Notes under the pieces: generated by a model
What the model was told of the DNA's origin: nothing
Databases searched by the model: none
What the model saw: the letters and a program-made list of their open reading frames with translations, nothing else
In this document: positions 8,830 through 62,017 of the stretch, piece after piece
Layout of the letters: each line of letters starts with the position of its first letter
Position numbering within the stretch: the first letter of the stretch is position 1
DNA from: Bacillota bacterium
GTDB taxonomy: Bacteria > Bacillota > Limnochordia > Darwinibacteriales > DTU012
DNA length: 64,000 nt
Assembly (NCBI GenBank): GCA_012521185.1
Contig: JAAYMV010000074.1
Coordinates: 24,919-88,918, forward strand
Reading direction: 5' to 3'
Made by a program: the position numbers and the translations under genes

Positions 8830-9531
8830 ATGGTTTTACCAATAGCTGGGGCAGTAGCCAATTGTCTTTTTCAAGGAATCGGGATTCTAGTCTCCTATAT
8901 TTCAAACAGTAATATTTTTCCCCAACCACTGACACCAGAAGAAGAAAGTGAGCTATTAGTCCAGATGGCTAATGGCAGTGAAGAGGCAAGGAATATTTTA
9001 ATTGAACGGAACTTAAGATTAGTTGCCCATGTGGTAAAAAAGTTTGATAAAAAAGGTGAAGATTTAGAGGATTTGATTTCTATTGGAACGATTGGTTTAA
9101 TTAAGTCGATCAATACTTTTAATCCAGAAAAGAATACACGATTAGCCACTTATGCAGCCCGTTGTATTGAAAATGAAGTGTTAATGCATTTACGTTCGAC
9201 TAAAAAATTGAGAAAAGAAGTTATGCTGCATGATCCAATCGGTTCAGATAAAGAAGGTAATACAATTAGTTTAATAGATATCTTTGGTACTGATGCTGAC
9301 TATGTTTTTGAACAAGTTGAGTTGAAAGTTGATCAAGCCCAATTGCAGGAAAAACTAAAAAATCTTTCCCAACGGGAAAAAAAGGTTATTGAATTACGTT
9401 ATGGTTTAGGCAATAACGAACGTAAAACCCAGCGAGAAATAAGTAAGGCTATGGGCATCTCTCGTTCATATGTGTCCCGCATTGAAAAGCGTGCTTTAAC
9501 TAAATTACAAAAGCAAATGTGTTTAGAATGA
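8830..9531 (+). CDS. sigK: RNA polymerase sporulation sigma factor pro-sigma-K (uninterrupted)
   Basis: Pro-sequence and [60 protein letters not shown]. Near-collinear with B. subtilis SigK as I recall it. Confidence 0.85.
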
Positions 9532-26986: not shown

Positions 26987-26994
26987 TACAGTAG

Positions 26995-27615
26995 TTTTAA
27001 ATGGATGATGCAGTATTCTAGTCATTAACCTCATTACCGAAGACGGGCCTAAAAATCCGTTAAAGGGCATATCGATGAAGTCCCTGGTGGTGGCCTCTTA
27101 CGCCCAGTTAGGGGTTGTTGCTGGGGGTTAAGGTTGAAGGGCGATCTACAATGGCATGTAGGCGTTGACCCTTCTTCCATGGAGACCCAAGTATGTGGAC
27201 TTACGGGAGACTGTATTTCTATGGCTTGGGATTGAACCTACACGCGATACGTGAACATAGTTTAGTGGTAGTTTGTGTTGGGTGTAGTGTAGCCTACCTT
27301 GAGTGATGTTGGAGGGATAGTGGATCCAAATTTGCAAATCCTCGGCCAAGGATCGCGAATTATTGCCGCTTGAAACCACCATTGCAAAAGAGGTTAGGAA
27401 TGAGTAGTTAATGTTGAGGAAAACTCCTAGACTGTTTCGTTATGAAGGTGACTTGAGGATTACGGTGTGGACTAAGTGGTAATCCAGCCTCGTTAATGGC
27501 GACAGACGAAGAGATCGGAAAGGGGAAACCGCCAGGCACGGCGACGTACTGGAGGATCTTTGGGAAAACCTGCTGGACCTAAGCCACAATCTTTACTCAA
27601 GTTATCGTCATCCAT
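26995..27615 (+). ncRNA. ole: Probable OLE (ornate large extremophilic) RNA
   Basis: About 620 nt with no sense-strand ORF. It is clearly more G+C-rich and structured than the flanking DNA. It sits exactly between ispA and a 4-TM small protein gene that precedes dxs, which is the canonical ispA-ole-oapA-dxs arrangement. Confidence 0.6.
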
Positions 27616-27638
27616 TTTACATAAAAGGGCGGTAATCT

Positions 27639-28217
27639 ATGAAGTTATTCAAACATGTGCTTACCATAGGAGGACTGACTTTTGTGATTTCGGTCCTCTT
27701 AAATATTAGTAGTACAGCAGCTTTGGCTTTATCACCGCTACATATTAGTTTTTTACTGCTTTTTTTAATTGTTCTAATTGGAATCATTTTTGATATTATT
27801 GCGGTAGCAGCAGCTGCTGGACAAGAAGCTCCTTTTCATGCTATGGCCACAGATCGAGTACCCGGTGCGAAACAATGTGTATGGTTAGTCCGTAATGCTG
27901 ATCGGGTATCAACGTTTTGTGGTGATATTGTCGGAGACATTGCCGGTACTATTAGTGGAGCCACTGCAGCGGCGATCATTTATCAACTAATTATTACAAA
28001 TCCTCAATTAAATGAGGGTATTCTAAATACAGTGTTGTTGGGATTGGTAGCTGCTTTGACCGTTGGTGGTAAAGCAGCGGGCAAAAGTTTTGCTATTAAC
28101 CGCTCAACAGATATTTTATATGTGGTAGGCCGGATGATTTATGCCTTTGAAAAAATGCGGCCTAACCAGAAAAAGAAGTCAAAACAGAATAAAAGAATCA
28201 ACAAAAAAAGCAAATAA
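27639..28217 (+). CDS. oapA: OLE-associated protein A-like small membrane protein (4 TM, Lys-rich C-tail)
   Basis: Four predicted TM helices, with conserved Asp-containing motifs FDIIAVAAAAG and GDIVGDIAG. Positioned between the putative OLE RNA and dxs. Confidence 0.6.
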   Translation: MKLFKHVLTIGGLTFVISVLLNISSTAALALSPLHISFLLLFLIVLIGIIFDIIAVAAAAGQEAPFHAMATDRVPGAKQCVWLVRNADRVSTFCGDIVGDIAGTISGATAAAIIYQLIITNPQLNEGILNTVLLGLVAALTVGGKAAGKSFAINRSTDILYVVGRMIYAFEKMRPNQKKKSKQNKRINKKSK

Positions 28218-42327: not shown

Positions 42328-43119
42328 ATGCGTGTATTCGTATATAAGTTGAGATTCCATCACTTTTTTGGTTTAGTTGTAGTCCTCTTACTTGTCTTTA
42401 GTATTACTAGTGAGATTTTCAGTCCAATGGTTCAAAAAGTCATTAGCGTTACTACAAATCGCTTAATTCCCATTTACCGAGTAGAAACCAGTGATAAAAA
42501 GTTGTCAATTTCTTTTGATGCTACTTGGGGTACTGACTTAACAGATGAAATTTTGGAAATTTTGCAAGAATATAATTTGAAGACTACGTTTTTTTTAGCT
42601 GGGTATTGGGTAGATAAGCACCCTGATTATGTAGTTAAAATTGCTGCCGAAGGTCATGAAATAGGTAACCATAGTTATTCCCATCCGCATATGAATAGCT
42701 TGTCTTTTGACGGTGTTGTGCTGGAGTTGCAGAAAAATCATGCCATGATCAAAGACATAACCGGTCAAAATCCCTTCCTCTTCCGCCCACCATTTGGCGA
42801 ATATAATAATACTGTTATCAAAGCAGCTGACTCCGTCGGTTACTACACCATTCAATGGTCTATTGATTCTCTGGATTGGAAAAATACCACTAGTGAAGAA
42901 GTTTATCAGCGAGTTATGAAAAATATTGGGCCTGGCGAAATTGTACTATTCCATAATGCCGCTAAGCCTACACCGGAAGCGTTACGGAGAATTATTCCAG
43001 AATTATTGGAACAAGGCTATCAAATTGTGCCTATTTCGGAATTAATTCATCGAGAGAACTATTATGTTGATCATGATGGAACCCAACGTTTACGTAAGGG
43101 AGGCTATACTGGTGAATAA
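42328..43119 (+). CDS. Polysaccharide deacetylase (NodB domain; PdaB-like sporulation deacetylase)
   Basis: TFFLAGYW...EIGNHSYSHP...LFRPPFG NodB motifs. N-terminal TM. Confidence 0.75.
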   Translation: MRVFVYKLRFHHFFGLVVVLLLVFSITSEIFSPMVQKVISVTTNRLIPIYRVETSDKKLSISFDATWGTDLTDEILEILQEYNLKTTFFLAGYWVDKHPDYVVKIAAEGHEIGNHSYSHPHMNSLSFDGVVLELQKNHAMIKDITGQNPFLFRPPFGEYNNTVIKAADSVGYYTIQWSIDSLDWKNTTSEEVYQRVMKNIGPGEIVLFHNAAKPTPEALRRIIPELLEQGYQIVPISELIHRENYYVDHDGTQRLRKGGYTGE

Positions 43120-44110
43120 ACGCAAAGGTGTATGGTTTAGTTTTGTCATTACTCGAAAAACATTAGTAGCAATTTTTGTGGTGATCAGTATTACGATTGT
43201 CAGTCTCACTACTGCTGCTTTATATGAACCATTTGCGAGAAGAATCTATGGAGTTAAACCAGGCGTAACTTTGGAAGTCTATGATATGAGTGGGTTATTA
43301 CCGGATGAATTATTTGATGCTATTCTAAGTATTGGTGAAGACCGAGTGATCGAAGCAAAAAATGCTAGTTTTGATTGGCAAACGGAATTAGTCTATCCGG
43401 AGCAGGTGGGAATGATTATTGATGTTTCCGCTACAATTGAAGCTTTATTATCGGCTGAACCAGGCAGTAGTATTGAACTGGCACATATTCAAGTTTTACC
43501 GTCAGTTACACAAAGTCATTTTGTTCCATATTATCAGGGACCTACTGATGAGCCGAAGGTAAGTCTGATGATAAATGTGGATTGGGGAAATGAGTATATT
43601 CCTACTATGTTAGATATCTTTGCCCAATATAACATTACTACAACTTGGTTTCCTACAGGCAGTTGGGTTGCCAAGTTTCCTGAATTAGCTCGGTTAATTG
43701 CTGATGCTGGCCACGAAATTGGTAATCACGGCGGGTGGCATGGGATGCCTAGTCAAATGACTGCTGACGAAGTACGCGAATTGATTCTTGATGGGGAAGA
43801 AAAAATCATTAATGTTACTGGGCAAAAGCCTCGAGTATTTGCACCTCCAGCAGGTGATATGAATAAACAAACGGTAGCCATTGCAGGGGAGTTAGGTTAT
43901 AAGACTGTTTTGTGGACTGTTGATACTGTTGACTGGCAGCGACCTGCACCAACAGTTATCATTGATCGGGTAATGAGTAAAATCCAAAATGGTGCCTTAG
44001 TATTGATGCATCCAACAGAACCGACTGCTGCTGCATTGCCAATTATTATTGAACAGTTACAGGCAAAAGGCTACCAAGTGGTAACGGTTTCTGAACTACT
44101 TGGCCCTTAA
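43112..44110 (+). CDS. Polysaccharide deacetylase family protein (N-terminal TM + unknown domain + C-terminal NodB domain; YlxY/PdaA-like)
   Basis: TTWFPTGSW...EIGNHGGWHGMP...VFAPPAG. GTG 43112 follows an AAGGGAGG RBS and overlaps the previous gene by 8 nt. Confidence 0.7.
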   Translation: MNKRKGVWFSFVITRKTLVAIFVVISITIVSLTTAALYEPFARRIYGVKPGVTLEVYDMSGLLPDELFDAILSIGEDRVIEAKNASFDWQTELVYPEQVGMIIDVSATIEALLSAEPGSSIELAHIQVLPSVTQSHFVPYYQGPTDEPKVSLMINVDWGNEYIPTMLDIFAQYNITTTWFPTGSWVAKFPELARLIADAGHEIGNHGGWHGMPSQMTADEVRELILDGEEKIINVTGQKPRVFAPPAGDMNKQTVAIAGELGYKTVLWTVDTVDWQRPAPTVIIDRVMSKIQNGALVLMHPTEPTAAALPIIIEQLQAKGYQVVTVSELLGP

Positions 44111-44115
44111 AGCCA

Positions 44116-44150
44116 ACAAGGGCTAGGCTTGTGGCTTCGCCCTTGTTTAT
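44116..44150. terminator. Bidirectional terminator between convergent genes (AACAAGGGC ... GCCCTTGTT + TATTTT)
   Basis: 9-bp perfect inverted repeat. Confidence 0.6.
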
Positions 44151-45436
44151 TTTAAAGTCTCATCAATAACTTGCCATATACCATTGTCTTCTTGTCCTAA
44201 CCGCCATAAAGCGATTCCGCCTAAGTTATACTGGTTAACTAAGTCTAACTTATATTTGATACTGTAGCGATTTTCAAACCATACTTGTCGGCCATTACCA
44301 TAATTAAAGTAAGGCACCTTGTGGGTACTATCCCATCGCAGACTAACGCCTTCTTTGGCTGCTAACTCCATTGTTTGAGAATAAGTTAAACCTTTAGCTA
44401 CACCGCTAACAGGCCAATCATAACCGTAGTTAGGAATGCCTAAAACTATTTTGTTTGCTGGGACTTGATTTACAGCGAATTTAATTACTGATTCTACCCA
44501 TTCCACTGAAGCAATTGGACCTGGAGGCCCACCACGGTAATGCTGATCATAAGCCATGATCACTAGCTTATCAACATATTTTCCGAGGGTTTTATAATCA
44601 TAGGCACCAAAATATCCAGTTGGATCATCAGCAGTTTTAGCTGGCACTGCCATGGTTATTTTAAGGTTGTCTTCTTTTAATTTTTCACTTAGTTTAGCTA
44701 CAAATTCATTTAACAAATCTCGATCTTCAGCTGGAACATTTTCTAGATCTAAGTTAATACCAGTCATGCCCCAGTCCACCAATGTGGAATGAATTTGGTT
44801 TATTGCTCGTTCTTGCGCGTAAGGATTGTTTAAGAAAGTGCTTACTATCCGGCTGTCAAAGCCATCATTATAAAAGTTATGAATTAGAGCATAGGTTTCA
44901 AGTTGTTGATTGCCGGCATATAACAACACATCACTGTAAGTTTGATAGTCAAAATCACCGTTTAAACCGCCATAACTGTCAATACTCCAACTCCAAGGAA
45001 TTACCGAAGTTAGAGAATTACTGTTTTCGATTAAGCTGTTATAGGATTGTTGGCCAAGTAAATAGTAGCCCATAACTGCTTTGTTATGTTGTTTTACTTT
45101 AGTTTCAGCTTCGGTTAATACTTCAATTAAATAGCCAGCTACCCAGCCAGTTTGTCCAGTGTTAGTTTTTACTTGATACCAACCATTATTATAGTCCAGT
45201 ACAGTAACTTGCTTGTCTTTTGTCAAAATGGTGATTGCACTGTGATCAGTACTTGGACCAGTTCGTAGTGTTACTCGGTCTCCAAGAATCTGTCCACGTT
45301 GTCCAGGACTGATTACTGATTGTTCTATAGCAATATTTGGATCATTTAAATCGAGTTTAGAATTATCGGAACCACCAAAGATACTAGAAATCACGAAAAG
45401 TGCTGTTAATACTGTAATGATTGTGTTTTGCGACAT
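44147..45436 (-). CDS. SH3b-domain glycoside hydrolase family 18 protein (YaaH/YdhD/SleL-like spore peptidoglycan hydrolase)
   Basis: N-terminal TM, an SH3b domain (GWYQVKTNTGQTGWVAGYLIEVL), and a GH18 barrel with a variant catalytic motif GINLDLE. AAGGAGGG RBS before ATG 45436. Confidence 0.8.
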   Translation of the reverse strand: MSQNTIITVLTALFVISSIFGGSDNSKLDLNDPNIAIEQSVISPGQRGQILGDRVTLRTGPSTDHSAITILTKDKQVTVLDYNNGWYQVKTNTGQTGWVAGYLIEVLTEAETKVKQHNKAVMGYYLLGQQSYNSLIENSNSLTSVIPWSWSIDSYGGLNGDFDYQTYSDVLLYAGNQQLETYALIHNFYNDGFDSRIVSTFLNNPYAQERAINQIHSTLVDWGMTGINLDLENVPAEDRDLLNEFVAKLSEKLKEDNLKITMAVPAKTADDPTGYFGAYDYKTLGKYVDKLVIMAYDQHYRGGPPGPIASVEWVESVIKFAVNQVPANKIVLGIPNYGYDWPVSGVAKGLTYSQTMELAAKEGVSLRWDSTHKVPYFNYGNGRQVWFENRYSIKYKLDLVNQYNLGGIALWRLGQEDNGIWQVIDETLK

Positions 45437-45603
45437 TATTTCCCTCCTTACATTTAATAATCGGAACAATTATTATAATACCATATAGTTGAATTGCCGT
45501 CAGTGTTAGTTATTAGGATTATTGGCTTATTTTGTGTAAATTTCGAAGATATGGTAAGATAAAAAGGATCCTAAGGGAGAGGTGCTGTAAGGAGGAGCTT
45601 TAG

Positions 45604-46932
45604 TTGTGGAGGAATAAAGCATTATTTTTATTACTGTCATTAACTAAGCTTGTTTTGTTGTGGAGTTCTGCAGCTGCACAGGATTGCCACTTTCAATATT
45701 CTGGTCAGTACAATATAACTCAGCAAGAATGGGAAAAGACCCTTGCTTATTTTGTGCAGGAACAGATAACTAGTCAGCATCAATTAACAGGCGAAGTTAA
45801 TCTAATCAGTAGTAATAAGCAATTACTTGATCTCCAGTTTAGGAACTGGATCTTTCAGTTTGATAATGAAGTCCATCATTGGGCTCTTTACTATAATTCG
45901 CCGCATCTAATTAGCACTGATCACTTTCGAATCCTGCATAAAGATTACTATCAGCCAGAGCATCTTTCTTTCCTATATCATTATCGGCCAGCGGATTTGC
46001 TTTTGTTGGTTAGTGAGGAGGTACCAATTAAACAGGGTCTTCCTAGTAGATTTGGTTATTTACAATGGACCAAAGGGTTAAATTTGCTTGATTGGCAGGT
46101 AGCAGCAGCTTGTTATGATTCTGGCTATTTGTGGGTGGAAACGTCTGGACAGAAGTGGAATTATCAAAGAAATACTGGTGCTATTCTGACTATGGATACT
46201 CAGGTTAAGCTCAAGTATCCAATAAATATTGCTTATGGCTCGTTACACCGTAGTTTAGTAACTGGTACAGAACTTGAGACTAAACAAAGTCAGGCCTTGA
46301 TTGTAACTAGTTTATTAGCAGGTGACAAGTTCCGTATTCGTCCCGGCTATCGCTATATCGGTCAGGATTTTGTCTGGCCTTTAACGAAAACTAGTCGTTA
46401 TACTAAAGATAGAGTTGGATTTTTTGGTGATTTACGCTACTCAGCTAAGCCCTGGCAAATTACCTTTGATTTTGCAGCTTTGAAAAGTGTTGACAGTACG
46501 AAAAGCTATCCAGCAACTGAATTATTAGTAGAATATCAGCCAAACAAAAATCGTTATTATGTTTCCAGAAAATGGCAGCCTAACCAACAGTATACCTTTG
46601 GTTTTGTTTATCAAGGTTTTAATGTGGAATGGCGTACCAACAATTCCCAGTTTCGGTTAGGGTATACATATCAGAACCATTCCTTGAAGTTTGCTAGTTC
46701 GTCATTAAATCAATACCGCATCGAATATAAGTATACCAGAGAGCCATTTGAGCTGCATTGTATTCATAAATTTGATCGAACAGAGCAAATTAGGTTTAAT
46801 TATGTTTTATTTAAATATGGGTATGAAACTCGATATTTACAATTTAGGTACGGCGAGCCAGATGGCGGGCAACTAATAGCTAAATTCGGTCATGTGCCCA
46901 ACTTATATATGGGATGGAGTTGGAGCTGGTGA
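45604..46932 (+). CDS. Secreted hypothetical protein with outer-membrane beta-barrel-like C-terminal region
   Basis: Signal peptide ending ...SSAAAQD. Many amphipathic, alternating aromatic strands (YTFGFVYQGF, FRLGYTYQ, YRIEYKYT, IRFNYVLFKYGY, LQFRYG) and a terminal aromatic tail WSWSW. TTG start after AAGGAGG. Confidence 0.6.
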   Translation: MWRNKALFLLLSLTKLVLLWSSAAAQDCHFQYSGQYNITQQEWEKTLAYFVQEQITSQHQLTGEVNLISSNKQLLDLQFRNWIFQFDNEVHHWALYYNSPHLISTDHFRILHKDYYQPEHLSFLYHYRPADLLLLVSEEVPIKQGLPSRFGYLQWTKGLNLLDWQVAAACYDSGYLWVETSGQKWNYQRNTGAILTMDTQVKLKYPINIAYGSLHRSLVTGTELETKQSQALIVTSLLAGDKFRIRPGYRYIGQDFVWPLTKTSRYTKDRVGFFGDLRYSAKPWQITFDFAALKSVDSTKSYPATELLVEYQPNKNRYYVSRKWQPNQQYTFGFVYQGFNVEWRTNNSQFRLGYTYQNHSLKFASSSLNQYRIEYKYTREPFELHCIHKFDRTEQIRFNYVLFKYGYETRYLQFRYGEPDGGQLIAKFGHVPNLYMGWSWSW

Positions 46933-46934
46933 GC

Positions 46935-47204
46935 ATGAGGTATTCGGACTTAGCCGGCAAAGAAATTGTTTGTTATGACGAAGGGATTAAATTAGGGATA
47001 GTTAACGACACAGATCTGATTATTAATACGAAAACAGGTGCTGTAGATTCGATAATTATTCCGTATGGAAAGGGAATTTTCAAAAAAGGAATTTTAGTGA
47101 TCCCCTGGAAAGGCGTGAAAAAAATAGGACGGGATTTAATCATTGTAGACTTAACTACAGCCGAAGATTATCATGATATTGTTCGTCGCTTAGAATTAGA
47201 ATAA
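46935..47204 (+). CDS. ymxH: YlmC/YmxH-family sporulation protein (PRC-barrel)
   Basis: MRYSDLAGKEIV...GAVDSIIIP. Precedes the dap/dpa genes, as ymxH does in B. subtilis. Confidence 0.8.
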   Translation: MRYSDLAGKEIVCYDEGIKLGIVNDTDLIINTKTGAVDSIIIPYGKGIFKKGILVIPWKGVKKIGRDLIIVDLTTAEDYHDIVRRLELE

Positions 47205-47766: not shown

Positions 47767-47784
47767 AATAACTATTTGATGAAA

Positions 47785-47812
47785 AAGGGACTGTTAAATC
47801 AGTCTCTTTTTC
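47785..47812 (+). terminator. Rho-independent terminator (AAAGGGACTG ttaaat CAGTCTCTTT + T-run)
   Basis: Read directly from the sequence. Confidence 0.6.
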
Positions 47813-47900
47813 GTATGTTTTTTATTTGAGATAAAGGATTTTGCTAGGTTTATCCAGAATCACAAGAAGATATTTATCAGAGATAGAAAGAGGGAAATTA

Positions 47901-61781: not shown

Positions 61782-62017
61782 AAATTAAATCGTAAGGACG
61801 ATGAAGAGGACTGCTATTAAAATGAGGGTCACAGAGAGCCGGGATATGGTGGAAGCCTGGTACCTAGTTTTAATAGGGATCACCTTGGAGTTATCAGCTG
61901 AATTCTAGTAAGCTGTATCGGTAGTTCCGTTATAACTAACAAGTGAAGATCTTAGCGATCTTAATTAGGGTGGTACCGCGGGTAACTCTCGTCCCTTTTT
62001 TTGGGATGAGAGTTTTT
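61782..62017 (+). promoter_or_regulatory. T-box riboswitch leader (Ile-specific) with terminator
   Basis: T-box sequence AATTAGGGTGGTACCGCG at 61963-61980. Terminator hairpin CTCTCGTCCC/GGGATGAGAG + T5 at 61987-62017. Stem I carries an AGAGAG bulge motif, and a candidate ATC-A specifier sits at about 61879. Confidence 0.75.

Follow-up and report, generated by a model that had tools for sequence, protein, structure and literature searches.

A stretch of 64,000 nucleotides (nt) from contig JAAYMV010000074.1 (GenBank assembly GCA_012521185.1, positions 24,919 to 88,918), referred to here as the window and numbered from its first letter, carries among its sporulation genes a gene at 45604 to 46932 on the forward strand whose product is best explained as a Sec-exported outer-membrane beta-barrel, a reading that is likely but not certain. 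A preliminary description of this DNA had ascribed outer-membrane barrel character to the product, and this is now supported by a confident AlphaFold2 (AF2) model, by matches in the Protein Data Bank (PDB) that, among those listed, are exclusively barrels, by the dyad pattern of the strands and by a conserved aromatic C-terminus. Judged by sequence, the product belongs to a previously unnamed family of large, probably outer-membrane, beta-barrels that the hidden Markov model (HMM) libraries have missed; the kind of protein itself is already known. The family has so far been seen only in a sub-clade of uncultured low-GC Limnochordia-related bacteria from digesters and similar habitats.

Gene product and predicted structure

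The open reading frame (ORF) of the barrel gene was confirmed, with 442 codons, a TTG start and a TGA stop. It is a real gene and not a chance ORF, because homologues of like length share the signal peptide and the aromatic C-terminus and because the synteny is conserved. The classical signal peptide reported earlier is present, and the segments then singled out (YTFGFVYQGF, FRLGYTYQ, YRIEYKYT, IRFNYVLFKYGY and the terminal WSWSW) were all found in the translation. The gene has the following parts:

45604 to 46932, forward strand: the barrel gene, defined by ORF, homologues, alignment, AF2 and Foldseek
45588 to 45595, forward strand: Shine-Dalgarno (SD) sequence TAAGGAGG, of the AGGAGG type, 8 nt 5' of the TTG start
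45604 to 45678, forward strand: signal peptide, residues 1-25, with predicted cleavage between SSAAA and QD and without a lipobox
46903 to 46929, forward strand: C-terminal strand LYMGWSWSW with alternating aromatics and a terminal Trp, a candidate beta-signal for the beta-barrel assembly machinery (BAM)

The N-terminus, MWRNKALFLLLSLTKLVLLWSSAAA followed by QD, combines a positive n-region (R3 and K5), a hydrophobic core at residues 6-20 and an A-x-A motif, the cleavage site being assigned by rule. Its hydropathy maximum, at residues 6-25, is the sole strongly hydrophobic 19-residue segment of the barrel protein, and AF2 modelled the signal segment as a helix (residues 2-22). Signal peptides with equivalent A-x-A ends are common to the members of the family in an alignment of 21 sequences. 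Identity as a lipoprotein was rejected on the lack of a lipobox. The mature protein of 417 residues is 18% aromatic, with a grand average of hydropathy of -0.60.

The fold was predicted with confidence once the family was aligned. On the 21-sequence alignment the best AF2 model reached a predicted local distance difference test score (pLDDT) of 92.5 and a predicted template modelling score (pTM) of 0.80, with all five models at pLDDT 91-92.5, whereas a run on the two closest sequences only gave a pLDDT of 28 and was unusable. After the signal helix the model is all-beta, with 28 DSSP strands and no later helix. The amphipathic strands of the preliminary description are real, but they extend over the whole mature protein (28 strands, residues 25-441) and not just over its C-terminal two-thirds. 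Hydrophobic or aromatic residues make up 71% of one strand face and 30% of the other, which is the dyad pattern mentioned above. W438 and W440 are on the hydrophobic face of the C-terminal strand; in the C-terminal third, the conserved R270, R351, R372 and K389, together with E374, lie on the polar face of their strands.

Outer-membrane proteins (OMPs) as a rule have short periplasmic turns, long external loops and an even number of strands. In the model, even strands are followed by connections of 2-4 residues, and each of the three long conserved loops comes after an odd strand; this arrangement of short turns and long loops on opposite sides, together with an even strand number, fits an OMP barrel. 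These three loops rank among the best-conserved stretches of the protein:

45895 to 45963, forward strand: long conserved loop after strand 5, residues 98-120, NSPHLISTDHFRILHKDYYQPEH, with D106 and R109 conserved in at least 90% of the family
46360 to 46410, forward strand: long conserved loop after strand 15, residues 253-269, GQDFVWPLTKTSRYTKD
46852 to 46902, forward strand: long conserved loop after strand 27, residues 417-433, GEPDGGQLIAKFGHVPN, with the invariant G417 and D420

A Foldseek search of the PDB with the model returned 191 matches at E<=0.001, and among the 50 listed all are outer-membrane barrels. They include the FimD/PapC ushers, LptD, and BtuB, FepA and further TonB-dependent receptors; their E-values lie between 1e-7 and 3e-5. 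The matches of probability 1.00 span about 500 columns of closed barrels of 22-26 strands, an indirect indication that the modelled barrel may be closed as well.

An unnamed family

An exhaustive HMMER search of 1.84 billion cluster representatives resolved the family into 27 clusters, nine of them at E<1e-30. A word-indexed search of 5.8 billion proteins returned the protein itself and one homologue with 45% identity, and at least three homologues when it was run with the 21-sequence profile. No match to the family came from a scan of the GTDB genomes with patterns from a two-sequence alignment, which reach close relatives only, or from a scan of the Joint Genome Institute (JGI) metagenomes with patterns from a 10-sequence alignment. 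One entry of the HMMER list, P0027 (2037 aa), was matched weakly and repeatedly, 15 times (E = 8.8e-5), by profile positions 174-224 and is probably an unrelated beta-hairpin repeat protein.

The family alignment consists of 21 full-length members, the window protein included. The aligned members have 16-45% identity to the window protein and a length of about 405-450 aa, and all of them carry a signal peptide. All 21 have F or W as their last residue, after alternating aromatics, with the consensus end W-G-W-x-F/W. Five residues (P326, R372, E374, G417 and D420) are invariant, and R270 and K389, like D106 and R109 and others, are conserved in at least 90% of the family. The window protein has no Pfam match below E = 0.25, the other 20 members give scattered, unrelated, single-member Pfam matches only (best E = 0.0038), NCBIfam has no match to the window protein, and neither a PDB sequence search nor a search with the family profile found one. 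In the databases the members are called only "hypothetical protein" of a Firmicutes or Bacillota bacterium; the entry NLM25699.1 (locus tag GX208_06230) falls into one 90%-identity cluster with the window protein.

The conserved residues bear on what such a barrel might do. It could be an export or assembly pore, usher-like or LptD-like, or an enzyme that uses the His/Ser/Asp loop PHxTSxD, and not a channel for small molecules; we consider this unlikely. FimD/PapC ushers and LptD are the top structural matches, 28 strands are far above the number in general porins, and the most conserved motif, N98-x-P-H101-x-T-S104-x-D106-x-F-R109-x-x-H112, contains residues like those of a hydrolase site. 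However, H101 and S104 are conserved in only about 70% of the family, and the invariant residues are charged pairs that are better suited to salt bridges. Moreover, the protein has no plug, periplasmic domains, beta-jellyroll or TonB box, none of the 21 members has a relevant Pfam match, and no chaperone, pilin, LptE-like or polysaccharide-export genes lie near any examined locus. A selective or gated channel in the outer membrane is the reading that is pursued below.

Host lineage and the outer membrane

The exact window protein was also found on a metagenome contig from a biogas fermenter. Scanning GTDB with an alignment of the neighbouring DpaA led to seven loci, the best with 65-66% identity, in metagenome-assembled genomes (MAGs) labelled Limnochordia or Bacillota bacterium, and the family HMM detected members in three of these seven, at the same position. 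The Limnochordia MAG GCA_007116995.1 encodes a further member, P0009. Limnochordia, a class of the Bacillota, has been described as diderm, and its cultivated members show an outer membrane by electron microscopy (PMC11456536, PMC11448272). PMC11456536 cites Taib et al. 2020 for an outer-membrane gene cluster in 46 of 46 uncultivated Limnochordia genomes, which came mostly from anaerobic mud and digesters. Within the window and the loci of about 20 kb from relatives, no outer-membrane biogenesis genes were found.

From its sequence relatives, the organism of the window is most likely a diderm spore-former. The preliminary description had arrived at the same view, which gains support from the Limnochordia relatives and the diderm character described for that class (PMC11456536). 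It had looked for the origin in Halanaerobiales or Negativicutes, and this found no support: the nearest named genomes by DpaA, and the MAGs that carry the family, are labelled Limnochordia (the pattern-based genome scan reaches only close relatives). It had also regarded an OMP as unexpected in a classical monoderm Firmicute. Because Limnochordia are already described as a diderm class, an OMP is to be expected rather than surprising; the earlier surprise is explained by taxonomy, and nothing is overturned by finding an OMP in a Limnochordia-related lineage.

The diderm context also bears on a different reading, in which the product is a secreted, soluble, beta-rich protein of the spore coat, the cortex or an S-layer in a monoderm, and the barrel model is an artefact of hairpin repeats. 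The location of the gene among spore-envelope genes and the failure of the two-sequence AF2 run would be in keeping with this. We nevertheless regard it as very improbable, given the scores of all five models on the full alignment, the transmembrane barrels that make up all 50 listed PDB matches, and a dyad pattern that is kept strictly over 28 strands with the tryptophans of the last strand on the hydrophobic face. The conserved terminal F or W, a strand count that is even, with short turns confined to one side, and nearest taxa in a class described as diderm likewise speak for an outer-membrane barrel.

The sporulation locus

The barrel gene is embedded among sporulation and cortex genes, as had been noted at the outset and as the annotation of the neighbours bears out. 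The window is a typical Firmicute sporulation neighbourhood, and its genes include sigK, the spoIIIA operon, accBC, the gene for OLE RNA and that for the membrane protein partnering it, dxs, recN, spoIVB and spo0A. After them lie genes for a SleB-like hydrolase and two PdaB/YlxY-like deacetylases, the divergent GH18 and SH3 gene, the barrel gene, ymxH and a yflT-like gene, and then dapB, dpaA, dpaB, asd, dapG, dapA, rnj, a tepA-like gene and ylzJ. The immediate neighbours are the following:

44147 to 45469, reverse strand: GH18 and SH3 gene (spore peptidoglycan hydrolase-like), divergent, sharing an intergenic region of 134 bp with the barrel gene
46935 to 47204, forward strand: ymxH-like gene (PRC-barrel, sporulation protein of the YlmC/YmxH family), starting 2 nt after the barrel stop codon
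47218 to 47766, forward strand: gene for a YflT-like stress protein (Pfam YflT), the last before the terminator and in the same position in relatives
47779 to 47814, forward strand: terminator-like hairpin of 15 pairs followed by a T run, closing the barrel-ymxH-yflT unit

The ymxH-like product matches Pfam PRC and NCBIfam TIGR02888, the latter with 67.1 bits against a cutoff of 44.2. This PRC gene lies directly 3' of the barrel gene in every relative with a visible downstream gene, with the exception of locus L031. The gap between the two genes is 1-3 nt in a close subfamily and 36-40 nt in a distant one, and the synteny is kept even at 16% identity. Just 5' of the barrel gene, many relatives have a gene for an M16 peptidase (mlpA-like), with or without a dUTPase gene. 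The comparison of these loci suggests an ancestral order mlpA-ymxH-spoVF, with the barrel gene inserted into the interval between mlpA and ymxH. Two Limnochordia-type MAGs with the GH18 ... ymxH-dapB-dpaA locus (L009:4534-6253 and L010:6791-8510) have the order mlpA-dut-ymxH without a barrel gene. Since they possess the locus and lack the barrel, the barrel gene marks a sub-clade.

Locus L031 (L031:1-21305) is set apart from the rest. Here ymxH, yflT, dpaA and dpaB, spoIVB, tepA and ylzJ, the GH18 gene and both deacetylase genes are missing at their conserved positions, while spo0A, the SleB-like gene, mlpA and the barrel gene with its leader are retained, the barrel gene being placed between mlpA and dapB. 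Going by gene content, the lineage seems to be asporogenous or degenerating but still to require the barrel.

Several other features of the window were recorded alongside. The ORFs of the two deacetylases, at 42328 to 43119 (PdaB-like) and 43064 to 44110 (YlxY-like), both on the forward strand, share 56 nt in the ORF list; the true start of the second is probably further 3', given that homology sets in only at its residue 81. At 8830 to 9531 on the forward strand, sigK is intact (NCBIfam SigK, 349 bits, above cutoff), with a pro-sequence-like N-terminus and no sign of an intervening element. A full-length OLE RNA (26989 to 27627, forward strand; RF01071, 502 bits) is situated between ispA and dxs in this Limnochordia-related genome, and the small membrane protein encoded after it (27639 to 28217, forward strand) has the position of the OLE-associated protein OapA. 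A T-box leader (61792 to 61999, forward strand; RF00230, 127 bits) is found 3' of divIVA.

Promoter and timing of expression

Upstream of the barrel gene there is a promoter-like sequence that follows the housekeeping consensus:

45532 to 45560, forward strand: sigma-A-type promoter with -35 element TTGTGT (45532 to 45537), a 17-nt spacer and the TG-extended -10 element TATGGTAAGAT (45550 to 45560)

Of the 13 other family genes inspected, 11 have the pattern TTGnnn-16/17-TRTGnTAnnnT in their upstream region, and the remaining two, in L001 and L013, have the extended -10 element only. In none of the inspected family genes was a CATA-type sigma-E/K element (CATAnnnT) or a sigma-F/G -10 element found upstream of the barrel gene. 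In the distant subfamily, where 36-40 nt separate the barrel gene from ymxH, a CATAnnnT element occurs about 15-25 nt 5' of the ymxH start. Examples that resemble a sigma-E/K -10 element are as follows:

L004:4028-4063: CATAnnnT element CATACATT
L017:1709-1746: CATAnnnT element CATAGATT
L029:11216-11255: CATAnnnT element CATAGGTT

This suggests that ymxH of the distant subfamily has a sporulation promoter of its own and that the barrel gene and ymxH are not one regulatory unit. Of the hallmarks of a sporulation regulon, namely a promoter for a sporulation sigma factor and co-occurrence with sporulation genes, the first was not found by consensus matching, and L031 departs from the second. The link to sporulation that had been drawn from the embedding of the gene is weak in view of the sigma-A-like promoter and of L031, which has lost sporulation genes and yet keeps the barrel. 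Given the sigma-A-type extended -10 promoter, expression of the barrel would be vegetative or at outgrowth, and not specific to sporulation.

The main rival explanation starts from the same neighbourhood. It makes the barrel a sporulation- or germination-specific OMP for the outer spore membrane as this becomes the new outer membrane, where it might be a pioneer channel for nutrients, germinants or dipicolinate (DPA); the adjacency to ymxH, the cortex genes and the DPA synthase genes would then be functional. The near-invariable place of the barrel gene directly 5' of ymxH, the gap of a few nt in the close subfamily and the cortex and DPA genes around it are all in its favour, and the ylmC/ymxH genes are sigma-E-dependent in Bacillus subtilis and Clostridium perfringens (PMC9332280). 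In Acetonema longum, the only diderm spore-former studied in this respect, a few OMPs are specific to germination, among them OmpM2 and the porin F7NDG7 (PMC13018214), and a sigma-A promoter coupled to a leader that blocks translation would suit outgrowth. Nonetheless, dormant spores of A. longum are without OMPs, which are made by vegetative and germinating cells (PMC13018214). The conserved promoter is sigma-A-like and not of the sigma-E, K, F or G type, the CATAnnnT element of ymxH in the distant subfamily renders co-regulation unnecessary, L031 retains barrel and leader without most of the sporulation genes that usually surround them, and some Limnochordia-type MAGs have the same sporulation locus without a barrel. 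On balance, a role confined to sporulation or germination seems distinctly unlikely.

Some observations weigh against a vegetative outer-membrane barrel of a Limnochordia relative as proposed here. The TM-scores to known barrels, 0.28-0.46, correspond to a generic likeness to large barrels and to no single family. The placement of the host is based on one marker (DpaA, with 65% identity) and on MAG labels, and the promoter call is a consensus match only. Finally, the spacing of 2 nt to ymxH, which is sigma-E-dependent in model organisms, leaves room for expression during sporulation.

A structured 5' leader in the relatives

The relatives may add a level of regulation to the gene. In 12 of the 15 distinct family loci, the barrel gene is preceded by a conserved leader of about 65 nt, of which the window retains a remnant:

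L003:9959-10024, L005:6882-6948, L029:9958-10024 and nine further loci: conserved leader
45566 to 45603, forward strand: remnant of the leader in the window
45571 to 45580, forward strand: upstream SD-like element CTAAGGGAGA, the conserved leader core and the only part of the leader kept in the window

The transcript is predicted to start about 7 nt after the -10 element, with GACUCCGUG. In the first helix, H1, of 9 bp, GACUCCGUG pairs with CGCGGAGUC, which encodes the R-G-V conserved in the signal peptide; in the second, H2, GAUGGU pairs with ACCAUC, which covers codons 2-3. An apical hairpin pairs the SD sequence with the UCC(UU) that follows it and is often closed by a GNRA loop, and a conserved 9-nt bulge, CYCAAGGGA, bears a second SD-like motif. 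The related element C(A)AGGGAG/CAAGGAAG occurs in 13 of the 15 leaders, L004 having a degenerate form of it and L013 none.

The pairing is backed by energy and by covariation. Minimum free energies (MFEs) of the leaders range from -17.8 to -32 kcal/mol, with z-scores from -2.4 to -6.4. In the leader alignment 93.9% of the cells pair, against 34-45% when the partners are slid, and compensatory changes occur in four of the six H2 pairs. RNAalifold independently arrives at H1, H2 and the SD hairpin, and 10 of its 21 pairs show compensatory changes. At gathering thresholds Rfam has no match to the leader in the window, and for the leaders of the window and of L003 matches at E<=10 were at chance level. 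A covariance model of the leader, run over 318 kb, matches only upstream of barrel genes. A metagenome-wide search with a DNA pattern of the leader returned seven stretches, two of which are the same organism as L007; the other five were rejected as chance occurrences, having neither the rest of the leader nor an ORF of the family. The yield of that search was a copy from one further organism only. In the covariance-model and pattern searches there was no sign that the leader controls other genes.

In the window gene itself neither H1 nor H2 is present; its MFE z-score is -0.86, and the covariance model has no match there. The same holds for L001, the locus of its closest homologue, which is likewise without H1 and H2, has a z-score of about -1 and gives no significant match to the model. 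What both keep is two AAGGRAG motifs about 15 nt apart, and we infer that the lineage of the window has lost the leader hairpin. In the other relatives the leader may be a translational off-switch, possibly opened by temperature, a ligand or a protein.

The leader pairing also explains the conserved N-terminus MTIRGVF and several of the miscalled N-termini in the databases. Wrong starts were noted for P0006, P0009, P0017, P0021 and P0002 (see also L027:9931-10000), where extensions such as MVLKGE.., MVKGG.., MYKGE.. and MLKEDSEGGS are the translated leader motif CAAGGGAG. Conversely, the model of P0008 is too short, its true start (MRGVFFY...) being 21 nt further upstream.

Working model and implications

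The steps proposed here beyond an outer-membrane barrel are held with less confidence than the barrel itself. The precursor would be exported by Sec and its signal peptide cut after AAA, and BAM would insert the mature chain into the outer membrane by way of the C-terminal aromatic strand, giving a barrel in which some 28 strands are joined on the periplasmic side by short turns. The three conserved external loops probably fold back into the lumen, carrying D106, R109 and D420, and there they would face a conserved basic ladder on the lumenal side of adjacent strands, formed by R270, R351, R372 and K389, together with E374. Salt bridges may latch the loops in this position, much as in the constriction or eyelet of a porin. 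Because of this likeness to a porin constriction, the protein is read as a gated or substrate-selective channel and not as an open pore. Transcription would proceed from the conserved sigma-A-type extended -10 promoter, which is of the housekeeping kind, and read through from the barrel gene into ymxH and yflT within the ancestral mlpA-ymxH-dapB-spoVF neighbourhood. In most relatives, the stable 5' hairpin that encloses the ribosome-binding site and the start codon would further control translation.

Of the three diderm Firmicute lineages on which the debate about the loss of the outer membrane in Gram-positive bacteria is anchored, Limnochordia have been studied least, and their outer-membrane proteome is essentially unannotated. 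The new family, with an alignment, a confident model, conserved residues assigned to the lumen and a fixed genomic address, offers a target for annotators and envelope biologists. With the presence of an OMP accounted for, the interest lies in a family whose barrel is very large and yet compact, which escapes the HMM libraries and is restricted to a sub-clade, with a fixed address and, in the relatives, a covarying leader RNA. The adjacency to ymxH and to the DPA and cortex genes, combined with the covarying leader, provides a testable handle on whether and how diderm spore-formers time the production of OMPs with respect to sporulation and germination.

One can speculate further that the barrel is a stage-controlled pioneer channel, whose stable sigma-A transcript is translationally silenced by the 5' hairpin, or by a CsrA-like factor bound to the two GGA motifs, and released at germination or outgrowth. 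This is a long shot. If it were true, the protein would be one of the earliest large channels to be placed in the outer spore membrane during its conversion into an outer membrane. With about 28 strands in 417 residues it would, in addition, exceed all known very large single-chain barrels in compactness, and its leader would represent a new class of riboregulator.

Relation to known barrel proteins

With BAM-assembled OMPs in general the window protein shares the Sec signal, the amphipathic beta meander, the short turns and long loops, the even strand number and the aromatic C-terminus. It differs from them in that no Pfam, NCBIfam or PDB family resembles its own in sequence, and in that some 28 strands are packed into so short a mature chain, without a plug or periplasmic domains. 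OmpM and the uncharacterised barrels of A. longum are likewise outer-membrane barrels of diderm Firmicutes (PMC10628300; PMC13018214), but their hosts belong to another class than the Limnochordia-related organism of the window. Identity as an OmpM/SLH-porin was rejected, as no member has an S-layer homology (SLH) match in Pfam or a coiled-coil and no homology was detected.

The FimD/PapC pores of the chaperone-usher pathway, with 24 strands, are the best Foldseek matches (E about 1e-7) and have the large barrel size in common with the window protein. The protein was nevertheless rejected as an usher: it is without the N-terminal, plug and C-terminal domains, has no match to PF00577, and the loci hold no chaperone or pilin genes. 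LptD, the 26-strand translocon for lipopolysaccharide, is expected in diderm Firmicutes; it too is a very large barrel and gives structural matches at E about 5e-6. This identity was rejected because the window protein lacks the N-terminal beta-jellyroll (OstA), has about half the length of LptD and has no LptE-like neighbour. A TonB-dependent receptor, with its 22-strand barrel, was likewise rejected, there being no Pfam match to Plug or TonB_dep_Rec and no TonB box, and strand 1 following directly on the signal peptide.

A parallel for the proposed function may be found in the trimeric porins of the OmpF type. Their L3 loop would have its counterpart in the long loop after an odd strand of the window protein, where the acidic D106 would face the basic ladder. 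The difference is one of size and number: 16-18 strands in the porins against about 28 here, and one constriction loop against three conserved loops.

For the leader, the parallels lie outside the barrel proteins. The two leader motifs resemble a dual GGA site of the CsrA type or a STAB-SD/5'-hairpin stabiliser of mRNA. Unlike the B. subtilis hag leader (CsrA) and the cry3A STAB-SD, the barrel leader has been found only before genes of one family, and its helices are absent from the window's own gene. The likeness would consist in two AAGGRAG motifs, spaced by about 15 nt, of which one coincides with the true SD, and, in the relatives, in a 5'-terminal stem that begins at about +1 and encloses the SD and start codon within a hairpin of -22 to -32 kcal/mol.

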